Shown here one piece after another: positions 4,735-26,206 of a stretch of DNA of 64,000 bases. The notes beneath the pieces are model-generated. The model made no database searches and was not told the DNA's origin. It was given only the letters and a program-made list of their open reading frames with translations. Within the stretch, counting starts at the first letter, position 1, and each line of letters starts with the position of its first letter. The DNA lies in IMG/VR virus record IMGVR_UViG_3300032304_000721, positions 1 through 64,000 of that record. One strand, written 5' to 3'. Both the position numbers and the translations under genes were made by a program. This DNA comes from a virus.

Positions 4735-4974
4735 ATGCAGAAAATCAACTTCCATTCTTTTAGTATGGGTGATGTAGAAGATCCAGAACTCTATGCCGCA
4801 CAACCGTTATATGAGTGGCAACAAACAGACCAGGGCCAATGGGTAATGAAGCATTGTTCTGACCCAAGATACATTGTACGACCCGATGATCATAATTGGG
4901 GACATAAAATCATTGTCTACGGCGAAATAGAAGATCAATTGGCAACCGAATACTTACTAAAGTGGGGAAAATGA
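4735..4974 (+). CDS. Small hypothetical protein (C-terminal YxLKW motif family)
   Basis: 79 aa, ends QLATEYLLKWGK; ATGA overlap with epimerase. Confidence 0.75.
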   Translation: MQKINFHSFSMGDVEDPELYAAQPLYEWQQTDQGQWVMKHCSDPRYIVRPDDHNWGHKIIVYGEIEDQLATEYLLKWGK

Positions 4975-5939
4975 AAATACTTATAACAGGTGGACTAGGA
5001 CTTATCGGACACAATGTAACTGCCAAGTTAGAAGCAAAAGAACACGAAGTTGTTATTGTGGATACACAAACCAACTATGGCATCATTCCGCAAGATGAAC
5101 TTGACTACTTGCTAGCAGAGCGTCGTAAAAAGATCGCCACAGATAGAATTTATCGCATTGATATTGCTGATCGCGACGGCATTAACTGGGTCGTGCGTGA
5201 GCATAAACCCGATGTTGTTATACACATGGCCAGTTTTCCTAGACAGAAAGTAGTCAACGCCAATCCTGCATGGGGTGCGCAAGTTATGATGGAAGGCTTA
5301 ATTAATGTTCTAGAAAGTGCTAAGGCACACCGAGTAGAACGTGTCGTTTATATTAGTAGCTCAATGGTATACGGCGACTTTGAAGATCAAGTCACCGAAG
5401 ACAGCGAGTGTAATCCAATTGGACAGTATGGTATTATGAAACTTGCTGGAGAACACCTGGTTAAAGATTATCATCGACGCGGTGCCTTTGACTACATCGT
5501 TATTCGTCCCAGTGCTGTATACGGCCCGCTTGATGTTGAAGATAGAGTTGTTGCCAAGTTTATGTTAGCTGCCATGCGTGGTGAAACTCTCAAGGTAAAT
5601 GGTGCAGAAGAAACACTGGACTTTACTTACGTGGAGGATGCCGCTGACGGTATTGTATCGGCTACCACACGTATCATGAGTGCCAATCGTATATATAATA
5701 TTACAAAATCACATTCAGTGACTCTGTTAGAGGCCGCAGAAATGATTGTTCGAATTGTAGGCAAAGGTACTGTTGAAGTTAGAGATAAAGATGCAGACTT
5801 TCCTAGTCGAGGTGCATTAGATATTGATCGTGCTAGAGTTATTCTTGGATACGATCCCAAAATTGATGTTGAAGAAGGTTTCCAAAGGTATTATGAATGG
5901 CTTAAAAATTCCGTTTACTGGTCTCAAAAAACAGTATAA
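4971..5939 (+). CDS. NAD-dependent nucleotide-sugar epimerase/dehydratase (extended SDR)
   Basis: ILITGGLGLIG Rossmann motif, YISSSMVYG, catalytic YGIMK (YxxxK), RPSAVYGP, DFTYVED; start ATG 4971. Confidence 0.93.
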   Translation: MKILITGGLGLIGHNVTAKLEAKEHEVVIVDTQTNYGIIPQDELDYLLAERRKKIATDRIYRIDIADRDGINWVVREHKPDVVIHMASFPRQKVVNANPAWGAQVMMEGLINVLESAKAHRVERVVYISSSMVYGDFEDQVTEDSECNPIGQYGIMKLAGEHLVKDYHRRGAFDYIVIRPSAVYGPLDVEDRVVAKFMLAAMRGETLKVNGAEETLDFTYVEDAADGIVSATTRIMSANRIYNITKSHSVTLLEAAEMIVRIVGKGTVEVRDKDADFPSRGALDIDRARVILGYDPKIDVEEGFQRYYEWLKNSVYWSQKTV

Positions 5940-6978
5940 CACGTTACGCACAGAGATATTAGATGTCACAGATGAAGTATTACGTTCTGGACAACTCATG
6001 GCGGGCAATTATACATTAGAGTTTGAAAACTGGCTGGCTCGAAAGAATCATAGCAAATATGCTATAACTTGTCATTCAGGCAGTCAAGCCTTAGAAATAA
6101 TAGCCGAATTTTATCGTGGACAAAGTAGTACAAATCCACCCAGAGTAGTTGTACCCGCAATGACCTATGTGGCCACAGCCAATGCATTTATTCGTGCAGG
6201 CTGGACGGTATATATTGCTGATACCGACACACATGGACTATTAAACAAAAACAAGATACCACACGACCTAAGTGTACAGGCCACTGTGTTGGTTGGATTA
6301 TATGGTGCCGCGGTAAATGCTGATCGTTTCTGGGGCACAGATTTAATCATAGAAGATGGTGCTCAACATTGGTTAAGCAACAACTCGAATAGAATAGGCA
6401 ATGCCACTGCTGTCAGCTTTGATCCTATGAAAAACTTAAATGCCTACGGTAATGGCGGTGCTGTTGTGACTGATGACATGGACCTGTTGGAGTTTGCTAG
6501 AGAGTGGACAAACAATGGAAAGCCTGCTCATACTAACATAGGAACAAATAGTAGAATGAGTGAAACAGAATCGGCTCAGATGTTAATCAAAACACGATAC
6601 ATTGACGCTTGGCAAGCTCGACGTAAAAGCATTGCATTATATTGGATGGGTCGTTTAAAGAACTCAGGTATTAGAAGTTTAATTGATAATAATAATTTTG
6701 AAACTCACTGCTATCATAAATTTGTTATTGATACAGATAGTCGAGATATATTATCGCAAAATTTAAATATAAAAGGCATTGAAACTCGTGTACATTATAA
6801 ACAACCGTTACACGAGTTACCTGCTTACGCAGATTATACCGGACCAGATATATTAAGTGTTGCCAGTAGTTTAAGTCGCAGAGTATTAAGTTTACCCTTA
6901 TATCCTGAATTAACTGACTTAGAAGTAGAATACGTTATTGATTCGGTATTAGATTCCGCTTTAACAAAGCATAACTAG
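5893..6978 (+). CDS. DegT/DnrJ/EryC1/StrS-family PLP-dependent sugar aminotransferase
   Basis: SGSQAL, PAMTYVATANA, IIEDGAQ, SFDPMKNL..GNGG (PLP Lys), GIETRVHY, LSLPLYPEL; likely start ATG 5893. Confidence 0.93.
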   Translation: MNGLKIPFTGLKKQYNTLRTEILDVTDEVLRSGQLMAGNYTLEFENWLARKNHSKYAITCHSGSQALEIIAEFYRGQSSTNPPRVVVPAMTYVATANAFIRAGWTVYIADTDTHGLLNKNKIPHDLSVQATVLVGLYGAAVNADRFWGTDLIIEDGAQHWLSNNSNRIGNATAVSFDPMKNLNAYGNGGAVVTDDMDLLEFAREWTNNGKPAHTNIGTNSRMSETESAQMLIKTRYIDAWQARRKSIALYWMGRLKNSGIRSLIDNNNFETHCYHKFVIDTDSRDILSQNLNIKGIETRVHYKQPLHELPAYADYTGPDILSVASSLSRRVLSLPLYPELTDLEVEYVIDSVLDSALTKHN

Positions 6979-24408: not shown

Positions 24409-25171
24409 TTGTCCACCCCTTAACATGATAATGTACCAGCCCCCACTGTGCCACAGTATTAATTCTAAACGGATTGTTTTCCCAGATTAATTCCTTGGTC
24501 CAATCATTACTTTGTATAGGATTGATATGACGTTTCATATGTACTATGGTGGGACCCAGACCTGCAGGCAAAGTCACTTGCTCCGGACCCATGATCACTG
24601 CGGCCATGGCATACACTACATCTGTGGTTGGCATATCGTCTGGAAATTTTAAAATCTTCTTATAACTATCCCACTGCTCAAAGATTTGGCGCACTATATT
24701 AAAAAACTCTTTGGCAGTTTTGCTTAACCGCCAATAGGTAATGGCATTGTAAACATCTGGCAAGTGATTAGCGTCAAATATTTTTCTGTAGTATCTTGAT
24801 TCTGCAGGTTGATCATAAAATGTCCTGGCGCAGTGACTTACCACAACATCACGGTGTTCGAATAAGGTCCACCAATGATCTATAGGGCTAGTACAAATCA
24901 TGTCTGCTTCTAATTTAATAGTTTGTCGATACGGACTGGCTGCAAACACTTGCCAATCATTGGAATAGCCGCCTTGATCACCGTACGGCAACGGAATCAC
25001 GTGATCGAACACTGGGTCACTACACTTCTTTACAGTTAGCACAGAAATATTGGCGTCTGGATGCCATTGTCGAATAGAGTGAGCCAACTGTGCTGCGCAA
25101 CACAAATAGTCAACAGTGTCTGTATCGATGGCTGGTATCAAGTAACCGCGTTCAGCAAGGATTGGCAACAA
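24401..25171 (-). CDS. Glycosyltransferase-like protein (GT-A, GT8-like)
   Basis: GYLIPA...DY...A..LAHSIR; SPYRQTIKLEADM (ExD); YNAITYW; TDVVYAMA; VHMK; paralog of 25152 gene. Confidence 0.6.
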   Translation of the reverse strand: MLPILAERGYLIPAIDTDTVDYLCCAAQLAHSIRQWHPDANISVLTVKKCSDPVFDHVIPLPYGDQGGYSNDWQVFAASPYRQTIKLEADMICTSPIDHWWTLFEHRDVVVSHCARTFYDQPAESRYYRKIFDANHLPDVYNAITYWRLSKTAKEFFNIVRQIFEQWDSYKKILKFPDDMPTTDVVYAMAAVIMGPEQVTLPAGLGPTIVHMKRHINPIQSNDWTKELIWENNPFRINTVAQWGLVHYHVKGWTNE

Positions 25172-25907
25172 TAGCTCCTAGTTGTTGTTTGCCCATGGCA
25201 TGGAAATCTTGTGTTAATGTTATCCAGCGTAGGTTATTCTCTGTGTTTACAAAATCTACTCTGTAACTGTCTCGATCAAGCTGTGTTAATTTATGATCGG
25301 GTGTTAAACTGGCCAATGCCCAAGGAATACCAGGGTGATCTAATGTATGCCCGTTAACTATGCCTAGGGCAATACTCAGCGCATGGTCGTTACGATAGGT
25401 TGCATTTGTATTTTTATATAAATTTCTATAATGAGTCCAGTTGTCTCGGATCATCTGCATTGAGTCAAAAATTAATTCTGCGTGTCGACTACGACGAAAC
25501 ATCATTACAGTTGCCCACCACATAGGCATACGATTGTCGCCAAAGTAATTGAGCCCTTCAAAGTTGTTGTTGCCGGTAATATCGTACGCCCAGCGATGCG
25601 CTAAAAAATCTTGGTCTATGTCTAGCACACATTGTAACTGATCGCTAGCCACTACATAGTCTGCATCCAGCACTAGAGTGCAATCCCATGGGCTCAGTCG
25701 ATACGCATCCATGCGATTGAGATTGTGCCATGTAACTGGACCAACATCTGTAAAGTGTCTTGTGTTAGTAGATGGTGCAGAATCATCGGTTACAATGTGT
25801 GTTGGTATACCAAGATGTCGTTCAATATTTTTAGACGACCAGCGAGCCATTGCCTCATAGTCAATCTTCTCATTATTGCGGGCAAATATTAATGCACCTG
25901 TTGTCAT
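25152..25907 (-). CDS. Glycosyltransferase-like protein (GT-A, GT8-like)
   Basis: GALIFA.NNEKIDY; LSPWDCTLVLDADY (DxD); WATVMMF; RNDHALSIA; HAMGK. Confidence 0.65.
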   Translation of the reverse strand: MTTGALIFARNNEKIDYEAMARWSSKNIERHLGIPTHIVTDDSAPSTNTRHFTDVGPVTWHNLNRMDAYRLSPWDCTLVLDADYVVASDQLQCVLDIDQDFLAHRWAYDITGNNNFEGLNYFGDNRMPMWWATVMMFRRSRHAELIFDSMQMIRDNWTHYRNLYKNTNATYRNDHALSIALGIVNGHTLDHPGIPWALASLTPDHKLTQLDRDSYRVDFVNTENNLRWITLTQDFHAMGKQQLGAIVANPC

Positions 25908-26206
25908 CTTTTTTGATTAAGCTCTTCGTATTCTACTAACCACGCATTAAGTTGTTCTTGCCAGCGTTGTAATACTTGTTCGTAAAACTCTTCAGCATCA
26001 ACTTGCACAGGTGTTTCGTATAGATCTAATATCACCACGCTACCAGTACAACATTTTAATGTGGTCAGCAGTTCTGGACCCGCTTGCCACATGCCGCCAG
26101 CATGCGCAAATATAAATTTAGCTTGATATTTTTCTTTAAGAGTGCGTCGTGCGGCCGCGTGTTCAAAACGGCTACGACCGTGAGCTACAAGTTCGTTGGT
26201 ATCCAT
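25904..26206 (-). CDS. Hypothetical protein, first gene of the minus-strand modification operon
   Basis: 100-aa ORF, ATGA overlap with downstream gene. Confidence 0.75.
   Translation of the reverse strand: MDTNELVAHGRSRFEHAAARRTLKEKYQAKFIFAHAGGMWQAGPELLTTLKCCTGSVVILDLYETPVQVDAEEFYEQVLQRWQEQLNAWLVEYEELNQKR

Follow-up and report, generated by a model that had tools for sequence, protein, structure and literature searches.

A conserved gene island beside the tail-fibre genes of T4-like jumbo phages as a candidate pathway for tailored virion glycans

What might a phage build with about 22 genes, many of them for putative sugar-tailoring enzymes, placed next to its tail-fibre genes? The question is raised by positions 4735-26206 (hereafter the island) of a 64-kb window, which is the whole stretch of DNA analyzed here and comprises the first 64 kb of a 74-kb viral contig (IMG/VR record IMGVR_UViG_3300032304_000721). 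A first-pass annotation had described the island as a nearly gap-free run of coupled genes for a natural-product-like modification pathway. The open reading frames (ORFs) are located where it had placed them, on both strands and with mostly overlapping starts and stops, and a family or fold was assigned for 16 of the 22. We tentatively propose that the island encodes a cytoplasmic pathway that tailors nucleoside diphosphate (NDP) sugars of the host and glycosylates virion fibre proteins, a reading that may well be right but that we hold to be somewhat short of probable. We infer every chemical step, the order of the steps and the acceptor from the protein families and folds, residues, hydropathy and synteny described below.

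According to this proposal, an extended short-chain dehydrogenase/reductase (SDR) would convert host NDP-hexoses to NDP-4-keto-6-deoxy sugars, from which a DegT-type aminotransferase would produce NDP-amino sugars. Five radical S-adenosylmethionine (SAM) enzymes would act as BtrN-like, C-H-abstracting sugar editors that turn secondary alcohols into ketones, or epimerize or deoxygenate, and would thereby open further positions to amination. An amidinotransferase would convert an amino group to a guanidino group, with arginine as the source of the amidino moiety, a NovN/TobZ-like enzyme would O-carbamoylate a hydroxyl, and seven glycosyltransferase (GT)-like proteins would assemble the chain and attach it. 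The acceptors would be the Ser/Thr-rich tail fibres and a giant adhesin-like protein encoded immediately upstream, so that the host-recognition parts of the virion would bear a cationic, carbamoylated glycan coat. The glycan reading of the first-pass annotation fits the enzyme families, the lack of a predicted membrane span, the lack of a known entry point for DNA hypermodification and the kinship with BtrN. A more specific version, in which the radical SAM family NF033640 consists of sugar C-H editors that, together with amidino and carbamoyl transfer, coat the fibres of freshwater jumbo phages in a cationic guanidino/carbamoyl glycan, appears doubtful to us.

The five radical SAM genes are located on the minus strand at 15447..16733, 16726..17952, 17949..19307, 19304..20641 and 21757..23172 (radical SAMs 1 to 5). 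All of them match NF033640 (N_Twi_rSAM) over the full model, with 278.6, 335.1, 398.5, 302.0 and 305.6 bits, respectively (E values of 9e-83, 5.9e-100, 3.3e-119, 7e-90 and 5.6e-91), compared with a curated cut-off of 170 bits. They form two subfamilies, consisting of radical SAMs 1-3 and 4-5. Pfam places a SPASM/twitch domain at residues 5-103 and the Radical_SAM core at residues 120-307. In an 18-sequence alignment, C40, C59, C100, C103, C154, C158 and C161, all seven of which are conserved in radical SAM 1, are invariant together with a GGE motif; the four N-terminal cysteines constitute the auxiliary site and the other three the CxxxCxxC triad. Judged by these invariant residues, all five enzymes look active.

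The only solved sequence relative of the twitch domain, searched with that of radical SAM 3, is the twitch domain of BtrN (E 4.7e-4, a weak match over about 80 residues), a radical SAM dehydrogenase of an amino-cyclitol. BtrN (PDB 4m7s/4m7t), the 2-deoxy-scyllo-inosamine dehydrogenase of butirosin biosynthesis, combines a radical SAM and a twitch domain as the island enzymes do, but its twitch domain is C-terminal whereas theirs is N-terminal. Its partner enzyme is a DegT-type aminotransferase, and the two act in an oxidise-then-transaminate scheme. The match therefore points to a permuted BtrN-like architecture of the N-terminal-twitch enzymes and to a similar scheme in the island. The family NF033640 has so far been a name only, while it is represented here by a five-gene array with two subfamilies. 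No paper with a tested substrate was found in a literature search on NF033640 or the N-terminal twitch, and a search on jumbo phages, radical SAM and paralogs returned nothing on the island.

Pfam and NCBIfam models likewise confirmed the SDR, the DegT-type protein and the carbamoyltransferase named by the first-pass annotation. The SDR gene (4971..5939, plus strand) encodes a putative NDP-sugar 4,6-dehydratase/epimerase (Pfam Epimerase, 4.9e-45), whose best NCBIfam match is dTDP-glucose 4,6-dehydratase (6.8e-38, below the cut-off of that model). It is followed by the gene for the DegT/DnrJ/EryC1-type, pyridoxal phosphate-dependent sugar aminotransferase (5824..6978, plus strand; Pfam 8.3e-55), the real start of which is probably at about 5933 and which matches PseC-like proteins best in NCBIfam (7.3e-37, again below the cut-off).

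The amidinotransferase of the AGAT/StrB1/SxtG family (11282..12316, plus strand) matches no Pfam model and was confirmed with a 10-sequence profile against the PDB, which recovered human AGAT (2.9e-22) followed by HsvA, SxtG and StrB1 (to 1.1e-16). Residues D154/D158, H190 and C329 are invariant, also in paralogs at 31-34% identity, and the Asp, His and C-terminal Cys align with those of AGAT, StrB1, SxtG and HsvA (FDNSDF/FDAADF, GHGD/PHID and GGISCC/GGFHCW in the alignment with AGAT). In contrast to these enzymes, the island protein has a GISCC rather than a GxHC motif, and it belongs to a virus-specific clade found in the jumbo-phage group. From its sequence, the protein is a true member of the family with an intact catalytic Asp-His-Cys set; by analogy and from the neighboring genes, arginine would be the donor and an amino sugar the acceptor. 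Some relatives carry a second amidinotransferase paralog with 28-34% identity about 6 kb away (L053:3626-4645, L069:3458-4477).

The O-carbamoyltransferase of the NodU/CmcH type (12862..14337, minus strand) is a short form of 491 residues that contains both Pfam halves, Carbam_trans_N (3.5e-37, 129.1 bits) and Carbam_trans_C (1.3e-45, 155.5 bits). Its nearest solved relatives are NovN (3.2e-50), GdmN and TobZ (~1e-33), which share both halves, but the solved enzymes exceed the island enzyme in length by about 90-200 residues. Against the NodU equivalog model it scores 133 bits, compared with a cut-off of 1000.

The first-pass annotation had also counted four GT-A-like and three GT-B-like proteins, and this count stands with graded support. 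The three GT-B-like paralogs are encoded at 8972..10093 (plus strand, 373 residues; protein 1 of what we call the TEK family), 10078..11289 (plus strand, 403 residues) and 20634..21782 (minus strand, 382 residues). Each aligns with the other two, and E251, E263 and K264 are invariant, with an E...TEK..K block. No sequence match was found for the family in Pfam, even at E<=10, or in the PDB, and tblastn of the TEK-type GT-B against cultured phages gave no match. The AlphaFold2 (AF2) model of protein 1 (pLDDT 87) matched SenB, OtsA and WaaG in Foldseek, all of which are GT-B enzymes, and VIA-align returned 177 chains at Z>=8, every one of the matches listed being a GT-B enzyme. The TEK block aligns with ...FTEK... 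of an annotated cyanophage GT10, with an hhalign score that is not significant. Based on the model, we read the TEK family as GT-B proteins with a putative GT10-like donor site.

A protein of 677 residues (6935..8968, minus strand; AF2 model, pLDDT 70) contains degenerate N-terminal W-HPD...Y-FG repeats and two GT-A-like domains, one at residues ~224-354 (VIA Z 10.4) and one at ~445-588 (Z 12.1 to B4GALNT1 and 10.3 to PBCV-1 A64R). The whole model matched the tandem GT-A proteins Mimivirus R699 (8e-6) and human LH3 (3e-5) in Foldseek, and an Atlas embedding search recovered unnamed viral clusters only. The C-terminal domain lacks a DxD motif (it reads FAKL) and is homologous to a GT-A-like protein of 305 residues (23166..24083, minus strand; hhalign probability 99.7, E 1e-26), in which a DGD motif is present. 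Profiles of both families gave chance-level matches only against PDB sequences. Two further paralogs are like GT8 or nucleotide-diphospho-sugar transferases, namely a protein of 256 residues (24401..25171, minus strand; phrog_1903) and a GT8/Nucleotid_trans-like protein of 251 residues (25152..25907, minus strand) with an invariant DxD, a later Asp and a His. In both, the DxD reads DAD. Their likeness to GT8 was seen in the embedding search only (0.95-0.97 to PF03407/PF01501 clusters), and sequence searches of Pfam and the PDB yielded no match to them. A kinship of the GT8-like family with the 677-residue family was considered and rejected, as hhalign rated them unrelated. Searching ten unknown ORFs against Pfam at E<=10 returned noise only. 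With support graded in this way, the seven GT-like proteins comprise three GT-B paralogs, a tandem GT-A protein, its single-domain GT-A paralog and two GT8-like proteins.

To follow the island in other genomes, we retrieved 80 IMG/VR loci anchored on the amidinotransferase and another 80 anchored on a strongly conserved 201-residue protein (phrog_11259), which is encoded between the T4-type core genes and the island. Counts refer to 50 full-length loci for the left half and 48 for the right half, from jumbo phages of 140-364 kb. Synteny of the island across about 100 related loci shows that the block is not a product of chance. The 677-residue protein, GT-B paralog 1, the amidinotransferase and the carbamoyltransferase are in place in all 50 loci, the SDR in 49, a conserved 343-residue ORF in 48, GT-B paralog 2 in 45, the DegT-type gene in 44 (a distant version substitutes for it in some) and radical SAMs 1-3 in 47-50. 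In the right half, the 305-residue gene is present in 48/48 loci and the 118-, 256-, 251- and 100-residue ORFs and two fibre-like genes in 47-48. The most conserved gene is the amidinotransferase, with a median identity of 83% and a range of 80-93% in 80 loci. GT folds in the GT-like ORFs and co-occurrence of the genes in related large phages, on which the first-pass annotation had made its claim depend, were thus both found. In marine relatives (L167-L169) with 30-45% identity, the order of radical SAMs, 305-, 256- and 251-residue proteins and fibre genes is the same. Contigs filed under bacterial metagenome-assembled genomes (L163-L170; Haliscomenobacter, Polynucleobacter, Porticoccaceae, TMED Verrucomicrobia/Betaproteobacteria/Rickettsiales and Flavobacterium) hold the phage island and fibre genes and have the appearance of phage sequences that were binned wrongly.

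A megablast search of 50,697 phage records with the complete island as query gave no match, and the only cultured relative found is the Ralstonia phage RsoM2USA (343.8 kb). Its ORF353, 352, 350, 349 and 348 encode two GT8-like proteins, a GT-A-like protein, an NF033640 radical SAM and another GT-A-like protein, and follow ORF355-361 on the same strand, of which ORF356, 359 and 361 were identified as virion proteins by mass spectrometry (PMC8504454). Identities are 29% for the 256-residue protein to ORF352, 37% for the 305-residue protein to ORF350 (37% and 32% for the two GT-A-like proteins) and 33% for radical SAM 5 to ORF349. A second locus (ORF199-204) holds a carbamoyltransferase (ORF199, 43%) and ORF202, which is 54% identical to radical SAM 4. 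The core thus follows the genes for fibres and giant structural proteins in the same order, but the genes are split over two loci and annotated as hypothetical. No homolog of the amidinotransferase or of the TEK-type GT-B was detected in RsoM2USA, and the paper on this phage makes no mention of the island-homolog genes (PMC8504454). As a cultured phage that carries the island core, RsoM2USA offers an experimental entry point.

The T4-like cyanophage S-SCSM2R also contains rows of GTs, epimerases, DegT-like, radical SAM, 2-oxoglutarate (2OG) oxygenase, carbamoyltransferase and amidinotransferase genes (ORF235-248 and ORF302-310), including the order GT, DegT-like, radical SAM, 2OG oxygenase, amidinotransferase and GT2. 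These rows differ from the island in their low identity (22-30%), their single radical SAM gene, their many 2OG oxygenases, their other GT families and their location away from the fibre genes. An S-SCSM2R amidinotransferase, which is 29.5% identical to that of the island, was detected in CsCl-purified virions (PMC12801897). The first-pass annotation had called the island a candidate for an undescribed system. This holds in that no published function and no paper describing the island were found; however, NF033640 is a catalogued family and the smaller row of S-SCSM2R has been annotated (PMC12801897).

Further support for a soluble pathway comes from what the genomes lack. Five complete relatives are available, with direct terminal repeats, ~100% CheckV completeness and sizes of 337-364 kb (the records behind L004, L014, L016, L071 and L151). 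None of them encodes a WbaP-type (PF02397) or WecA/MraY-type (PF00953) initiator, with positive controls that worked, which makes a lipid-carrier pathway initiated by the phage unlikely. Nor was any sugar-1-phosphate nucleotidyltransferase found in them, so that the donors must come from the host. Together, these two absences suggest that assembly is probably soluble and uses host NDP-sugars. A hydropathy scan of 26 ORFs revealed no hydrophobic or predicted membrane span in any of them.

Two fibre-like genes encoding proteins of 328 and 426 residues (26279..28562, minus strand) lie next to the island and are the candidate acceptors. Their Thr/Ser-rich composition, pointed out by the first-pass annotation, was borne out: the 426-residue protein has PHROG tail-fibre matches and a weak match to Peptidase_G2, a chaperone domain, and Ser and Thr together make up 33% (328-residue protein) and 22% of the residues compared with 11% in the other ORFs. 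The proteins carry 0-1 Cys. Both genes are syntenic in 47-48/48 relatives, and the neighboring fibre gene occurs on more than 600 IMG/VR contigs. The acceptor is most likely to be found among the virion fibre and adhesin proteins. This choice is favored by the adjacency conserved across freshwater and marine relatives and RsoM2USA, by Ser/Thr-rich fibres combined with island ORFs without a predicted membrane span, and by the amidinotransferase homolog in the virion proteome of S-SCSM2R.

Virion glycosylation encoded by viruses is known from mycobacteriophages (O-glycosylation of capsid and tail), PBCV-1 (A64R) and the mimivirus fibril, and there also proceeds with soluble GT-A/GT-B enzymes and no lipid-carrier machinery of the host. 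The island GT-A domain matches A64R and Mimivirus R699. Mimivirus also uses a 4,6-dehydratase and a DegT-type aminotransferase. To our knowledge, neither radical SAM enzymes nor amidino or carbamoyl transfer take part in the glycosylation systems of mycobacteriophages, chloroviruses or mimivirus. Glycan pathways of phages and giant viruses are therefore familiar (the lipopolysaccharide (LPS) islands of cyanophages and the mycobacteriophage, chlorovirus and mimivirus systems), and what is new here is the combination of a radical SAM array with amidino and carbamoyl transfer. Should the fibres carry the product, virion glycosylation by phages would no longer be confined to mycobacteriophages and would include a chemistry (radical SAM editing, guanidino and carbamoyl groups) not known from any virion, which would bear on host recognition, evasion of receptor-masking defences and particle stability.

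Several observations weigh against fibre glycosylation and are considered here together with the readings that they favor. To begin with, T4-like genomes are strongly syntenic anyway, so that the position beside the fibre genes says little. Moreover, the top VIA-align match of the GT-B model is T4 DNA beta-glucosyltransferase (Z 11.9), next to T4 alpha-glucosyltransferase (11.1) and tied within ~1 Z with the alpha-1,3-fucosyltransferase (FucT) of H. pylori (10.9). These matches would suit a hypermodification of phage DNA (or RNA), in which the GT-B proteins, the carbamoyltransferase and the radical SAM enzymes decorate bases as a protection against restriction, as would the ThyX gene shortly upstream of the island, an early-type promoter (see below) and the precedent of a phage NodU-type enzyme that carbamoylates 5-hydroxymethylcytosine (5hmC) in DNA (PMC8670742). 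However, no ThyA-type hydroxymethylase (PF00303; control positive in 10/14 genomes), DpdA/TGT or C5-methyltransferase was found in the five complete relatives, and TET/JBP (PF12851) gave no match in them in a search that had no positive control. ThyX shows the canonical RHR...S motif, implying ordinary dTMP. In the MetaGPA study, carbamoyltransferases acting on 5hmC DNA co-occurred with ThyA homologs only in modified contigs, and GT-flanked carbamoyltransferases represented unmodified contigs (PMC8670742); the phage 5hmC carbamoyltransferases thus have a ThyA-like partner, whereas the island enzyme has none in the five complete relatives. In addition, the match to the two T4 glucosyltransferases is at the level of the fold only, FucT is tied with the beta-glucosyltransferase, and the family has a GT10-like TEK motif. 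Given the missing ThyA, DpdA and C5-methylase, the ThyX motif and the MetaGPA context, DNA is probably not the target, and we consider this reading very unlikely.

A further point against fibre glycosylation is the arrangement of transcription signals. A hairpin terminator of the fibre operon (26204..26258, minus strand) is located between the 328-residue fibre gene and the first island gene, and is directly followed by TTTACT-17-TATAAT (TTTAC[T/C] in relatives) with the ATG 6 nt past the -10 element (6-8 nt when relatives are included). Of the 55 distinct relatives listed, most keep this terminator-promoter layout while their stems differ by compensatory changes, and the island is therefore, as far as can be predicted, a separate transcription unit with a sigma-70-type promoter. 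The first minus-strand gene, which encodes a conserved protein of 100 residues (25904..26206, minus strand; 47/48 relatives), possibly yields a leaderless mRNA. The plus-strand SDR unit shows a similar arrangement of TATAAT, 6 nt and ATG. The T4 early promoter consensus is GTTTAC...TATAAT, and the island promoter resembles early promoters and not gp55 late promoters, so that co-expression with the fibres does not follow.

A promoter of the sigma-70 type would permit expression ahead of the late genes, as would be useful if the enzymes extended or tailored LPS, capsule or S-layer lipid-linked intermediates of the host during infection, with superinfection block or an altered surface as the outcome. 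The same has been proposed for the LPS/cell-wall islands of T4-like cyanophages. Cyanomyoviruses indeed have comparable rows of epimerases, GT10/GT11/GT2, carbamoyltransferase and amidinotransferase genes, which the authors of the S-SCSM2R study read as cell-surface modification genes (PMC12801897), and the counterparts of the island in Bdellovibrionales are found close to genes for outer-membrane-like proteins. Such remodelling of the host envelope is nevertheless unlikely in our view, considering the island ORFs without a membrane span, the five complete genomes without an initiating phosphoglycosyltransferase and the strict conservation of the core beside the fibres, since surface-conversion genes are usually accessory and variable.

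Outside phages, a scan of genome contigs with a 5-sequence profile found NF033640 concentrated in Bdellovibrionales/Bacteriovoracaceae, Flavobacteriales and Cytophagales. On chromosomal contigs of Bdellovibrionales and other Bdellovibrionota (L220-L242), the gene stands in arrays with other genes in 22/23 loci examined. The arrays span three radical SAM families, the NF033640 genes being accompanied by two further ones, an aminotransferase-like protein and an SDR, and 12 radical SAM genes are packed into a single 21-kb Bdellovibrionales locus. A homolog of the 305-residue GT-A-like protein (30-42% identity) occurs in 12 loci and an amidinotransferase homolog in two. No phage fibre gene is nearby, which indicates that the module needs no fibre acceptor. 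Judging from these chromosomal arrays, the association of radical SAM, GT-A and amidinotransferase genes is older than phage fibres and independent of them. If the proposed chemistry is true, it would provide the first function for NF033640, a radical SAM family that is also expanded in the predatory Bdellovibrionales, in arrays with up to 12 radical SAM genes.

The occurrence of the module in bacterial chromosomes without fibres would also fit a soluble specialised metabolite, an aminoglycoside-, nucleoside- or saxitoxin-like molecule acting on the host or on competitors. BtrN-, DegT-, StrB1- and TobZ/NovN-type enzymes together with GT-B proteins follow the logic of aminocyclitol biosynthesis, all island proteins appear soluble, and the S-SCSM2R authors labelled a trio of genes as antibiotic synthesis genes of unknown purpose (PMC12801897). 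Family and hydropathy scans of the island, however, revealed no cyclitol/2-deoxy-scyllo-inosose synthase, exporter or resistance gene. Seven GT-like proteins exceed what small aminoglycosides need, and the time in which a lytic jumbo phage could gain from a secreted product is short. A metabolite of this kind is thus quite improbable.

A last point against fibre glycosylation is the distribution of the radical SAM genes themselves. Each of the five complete relatives has 8-17 NF033640 paralogs above the cut-off, dispersed over the genome and mostly present as single genes among unknown ORFs, away from GT genes; no control genome has any. The radical SAMs may have other substrates. They might, with or without the GTs, cross-link, epimerize or oxidize (in a formylglycine-type reaction) the fibres or a small peptide, like the SPASM/twitch maturases. 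Many SPASM/twitch enzymes are peptide maturases, weak NCBIfam side-matches point in this direction, the matches of the GT-A domain include the S-glycosyltransferases ThuS and SunS, and the island has conserved small ORFs (33, 100 and 118 residues). Against this, no RRE-like domain was detected, the 33-residue peptide contains no Cys and no leader/core pattern, and the fibre proteins offer 0-1 Cys. BtrN, the sole solved sequence relative of the twitch domain, has a sugar-like substrate, and the tight linkage is to sugar enzymes. Radical chemistry on a protein or peptide is therefore highly improbable, and glycosylation of virion fibres by a soluble pathway is the proposal that we retain.

The remaining ORFs of the island are less well characterized. 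The sole sizeable intergenic gap (94 nt, 14338-14431) contains a conserved gene (14334..14435, minus strand) for a basic peptide of 33 residues, MNWIKNLYNRIRLEMRYRKKLKELRKRDPFIYK, with the C-terminus DPFIYK. It was found in 70 related loci with 82-97% identity, always between the 343-residue ORF and the carbamoyltransferase, and has no Pfam match. The 343-residue protein (14432..15463, minus strand) has no match in Pfam, PHROG, NCBIfam or the PDB. A profile search with its family recovered more than 6,800 metagenomic clusters (90% identity), all of them unnamed; the clade is thus very common in environmental metagenomes. A relationship of this family to the GT-B family was rejected, since hhalign rated them unrelated. 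The conserved 118-residue ORF (24070..24426, minus strand; 47/48 relatives) has no family match either. An ORF of 79 residues (4735..4974, plus strand), which is below the length limit of the ORF list and has no Pfam match, overlaps the SDR start with its stop (ATGA) and is conserved in 63 related loci; TTGTAA-17-TATAAT is located upstream of it, with the ATG 6 nt past the -10 element.

One assignment of the first-pass annotation was not confirmed. The ORF of 181 residues (12317..12862, minus strand), described there as a 2OG-Fe(II) oxygenase, shows an HxD...H...RxS motif only, without a match in Pfam, NCBIfam, PHROGs or the PDB, and its hhalign comparison with two annotated cyanophage 2OG oxygenases was not significant. 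As it was found in 2/50 full-length relatives, it is an accessory gene, and an oxygenase activity is no more than suspected from the motif. Next to it, minus-strand genes directly flank the plus-strand trio formed by the amidinotransferase gene and two GT-B genes, at distances of 3 nt (8968-8972) and 0 nt (12316-12317), leaving the trio no space for its own promoter; this arrangement is retained in relatives.

From the T4-type core genes to the right of the island and the complete relatives of 337-364 kb, the source phage is an uncultured T4-like jumbo myovirus. The core genes encode a gp6-like baseplate wedge protein (44186-47620, E 1.3e-279), a gp25-like protein, gp5-like hub proteins, a gp55-like late sigma factor (55657-56682) and gp47/gp46 (SbcD/SbcC-like) nucleases. 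The island takes up ~6% of a 340-kb genome and provides a tractable context for finding a first function of NF033640 and of the virus-specific amidinotransferase clade. Between the baseplate wedge and the fibre genes lies an ORF of 4,940 residues (29364-44186, minus strand) with CBM_5_12 and FG-GAP repeats, the product of which is the giant adhesin-like protein mentioned above. It is poorly conserved among relatives, and its product is therefore probably an adhesin of variable sequence or a determinant of host range.

The T4 late promoter sequence TATAAATA does not occur in the 64 kb, compared with 4.5 expected occurrences, despite the presence of a gp55 homolog, and TAAATA-type motifs were found upstream of the gp25-like gene and the 426-residue fibre gene. 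Based on these two observations, the late promoter of the phage may differ from that of T4. Beside gp46 there is a sixth radical SAM gene (62101-63066, plus strand), whose product has its SPASM domain at the C-terminus and shares 30% identity with the second Bdellovibrionales radical SAM family, to which the following ORF (63056-64000, plus strand) also shows weak similarity.

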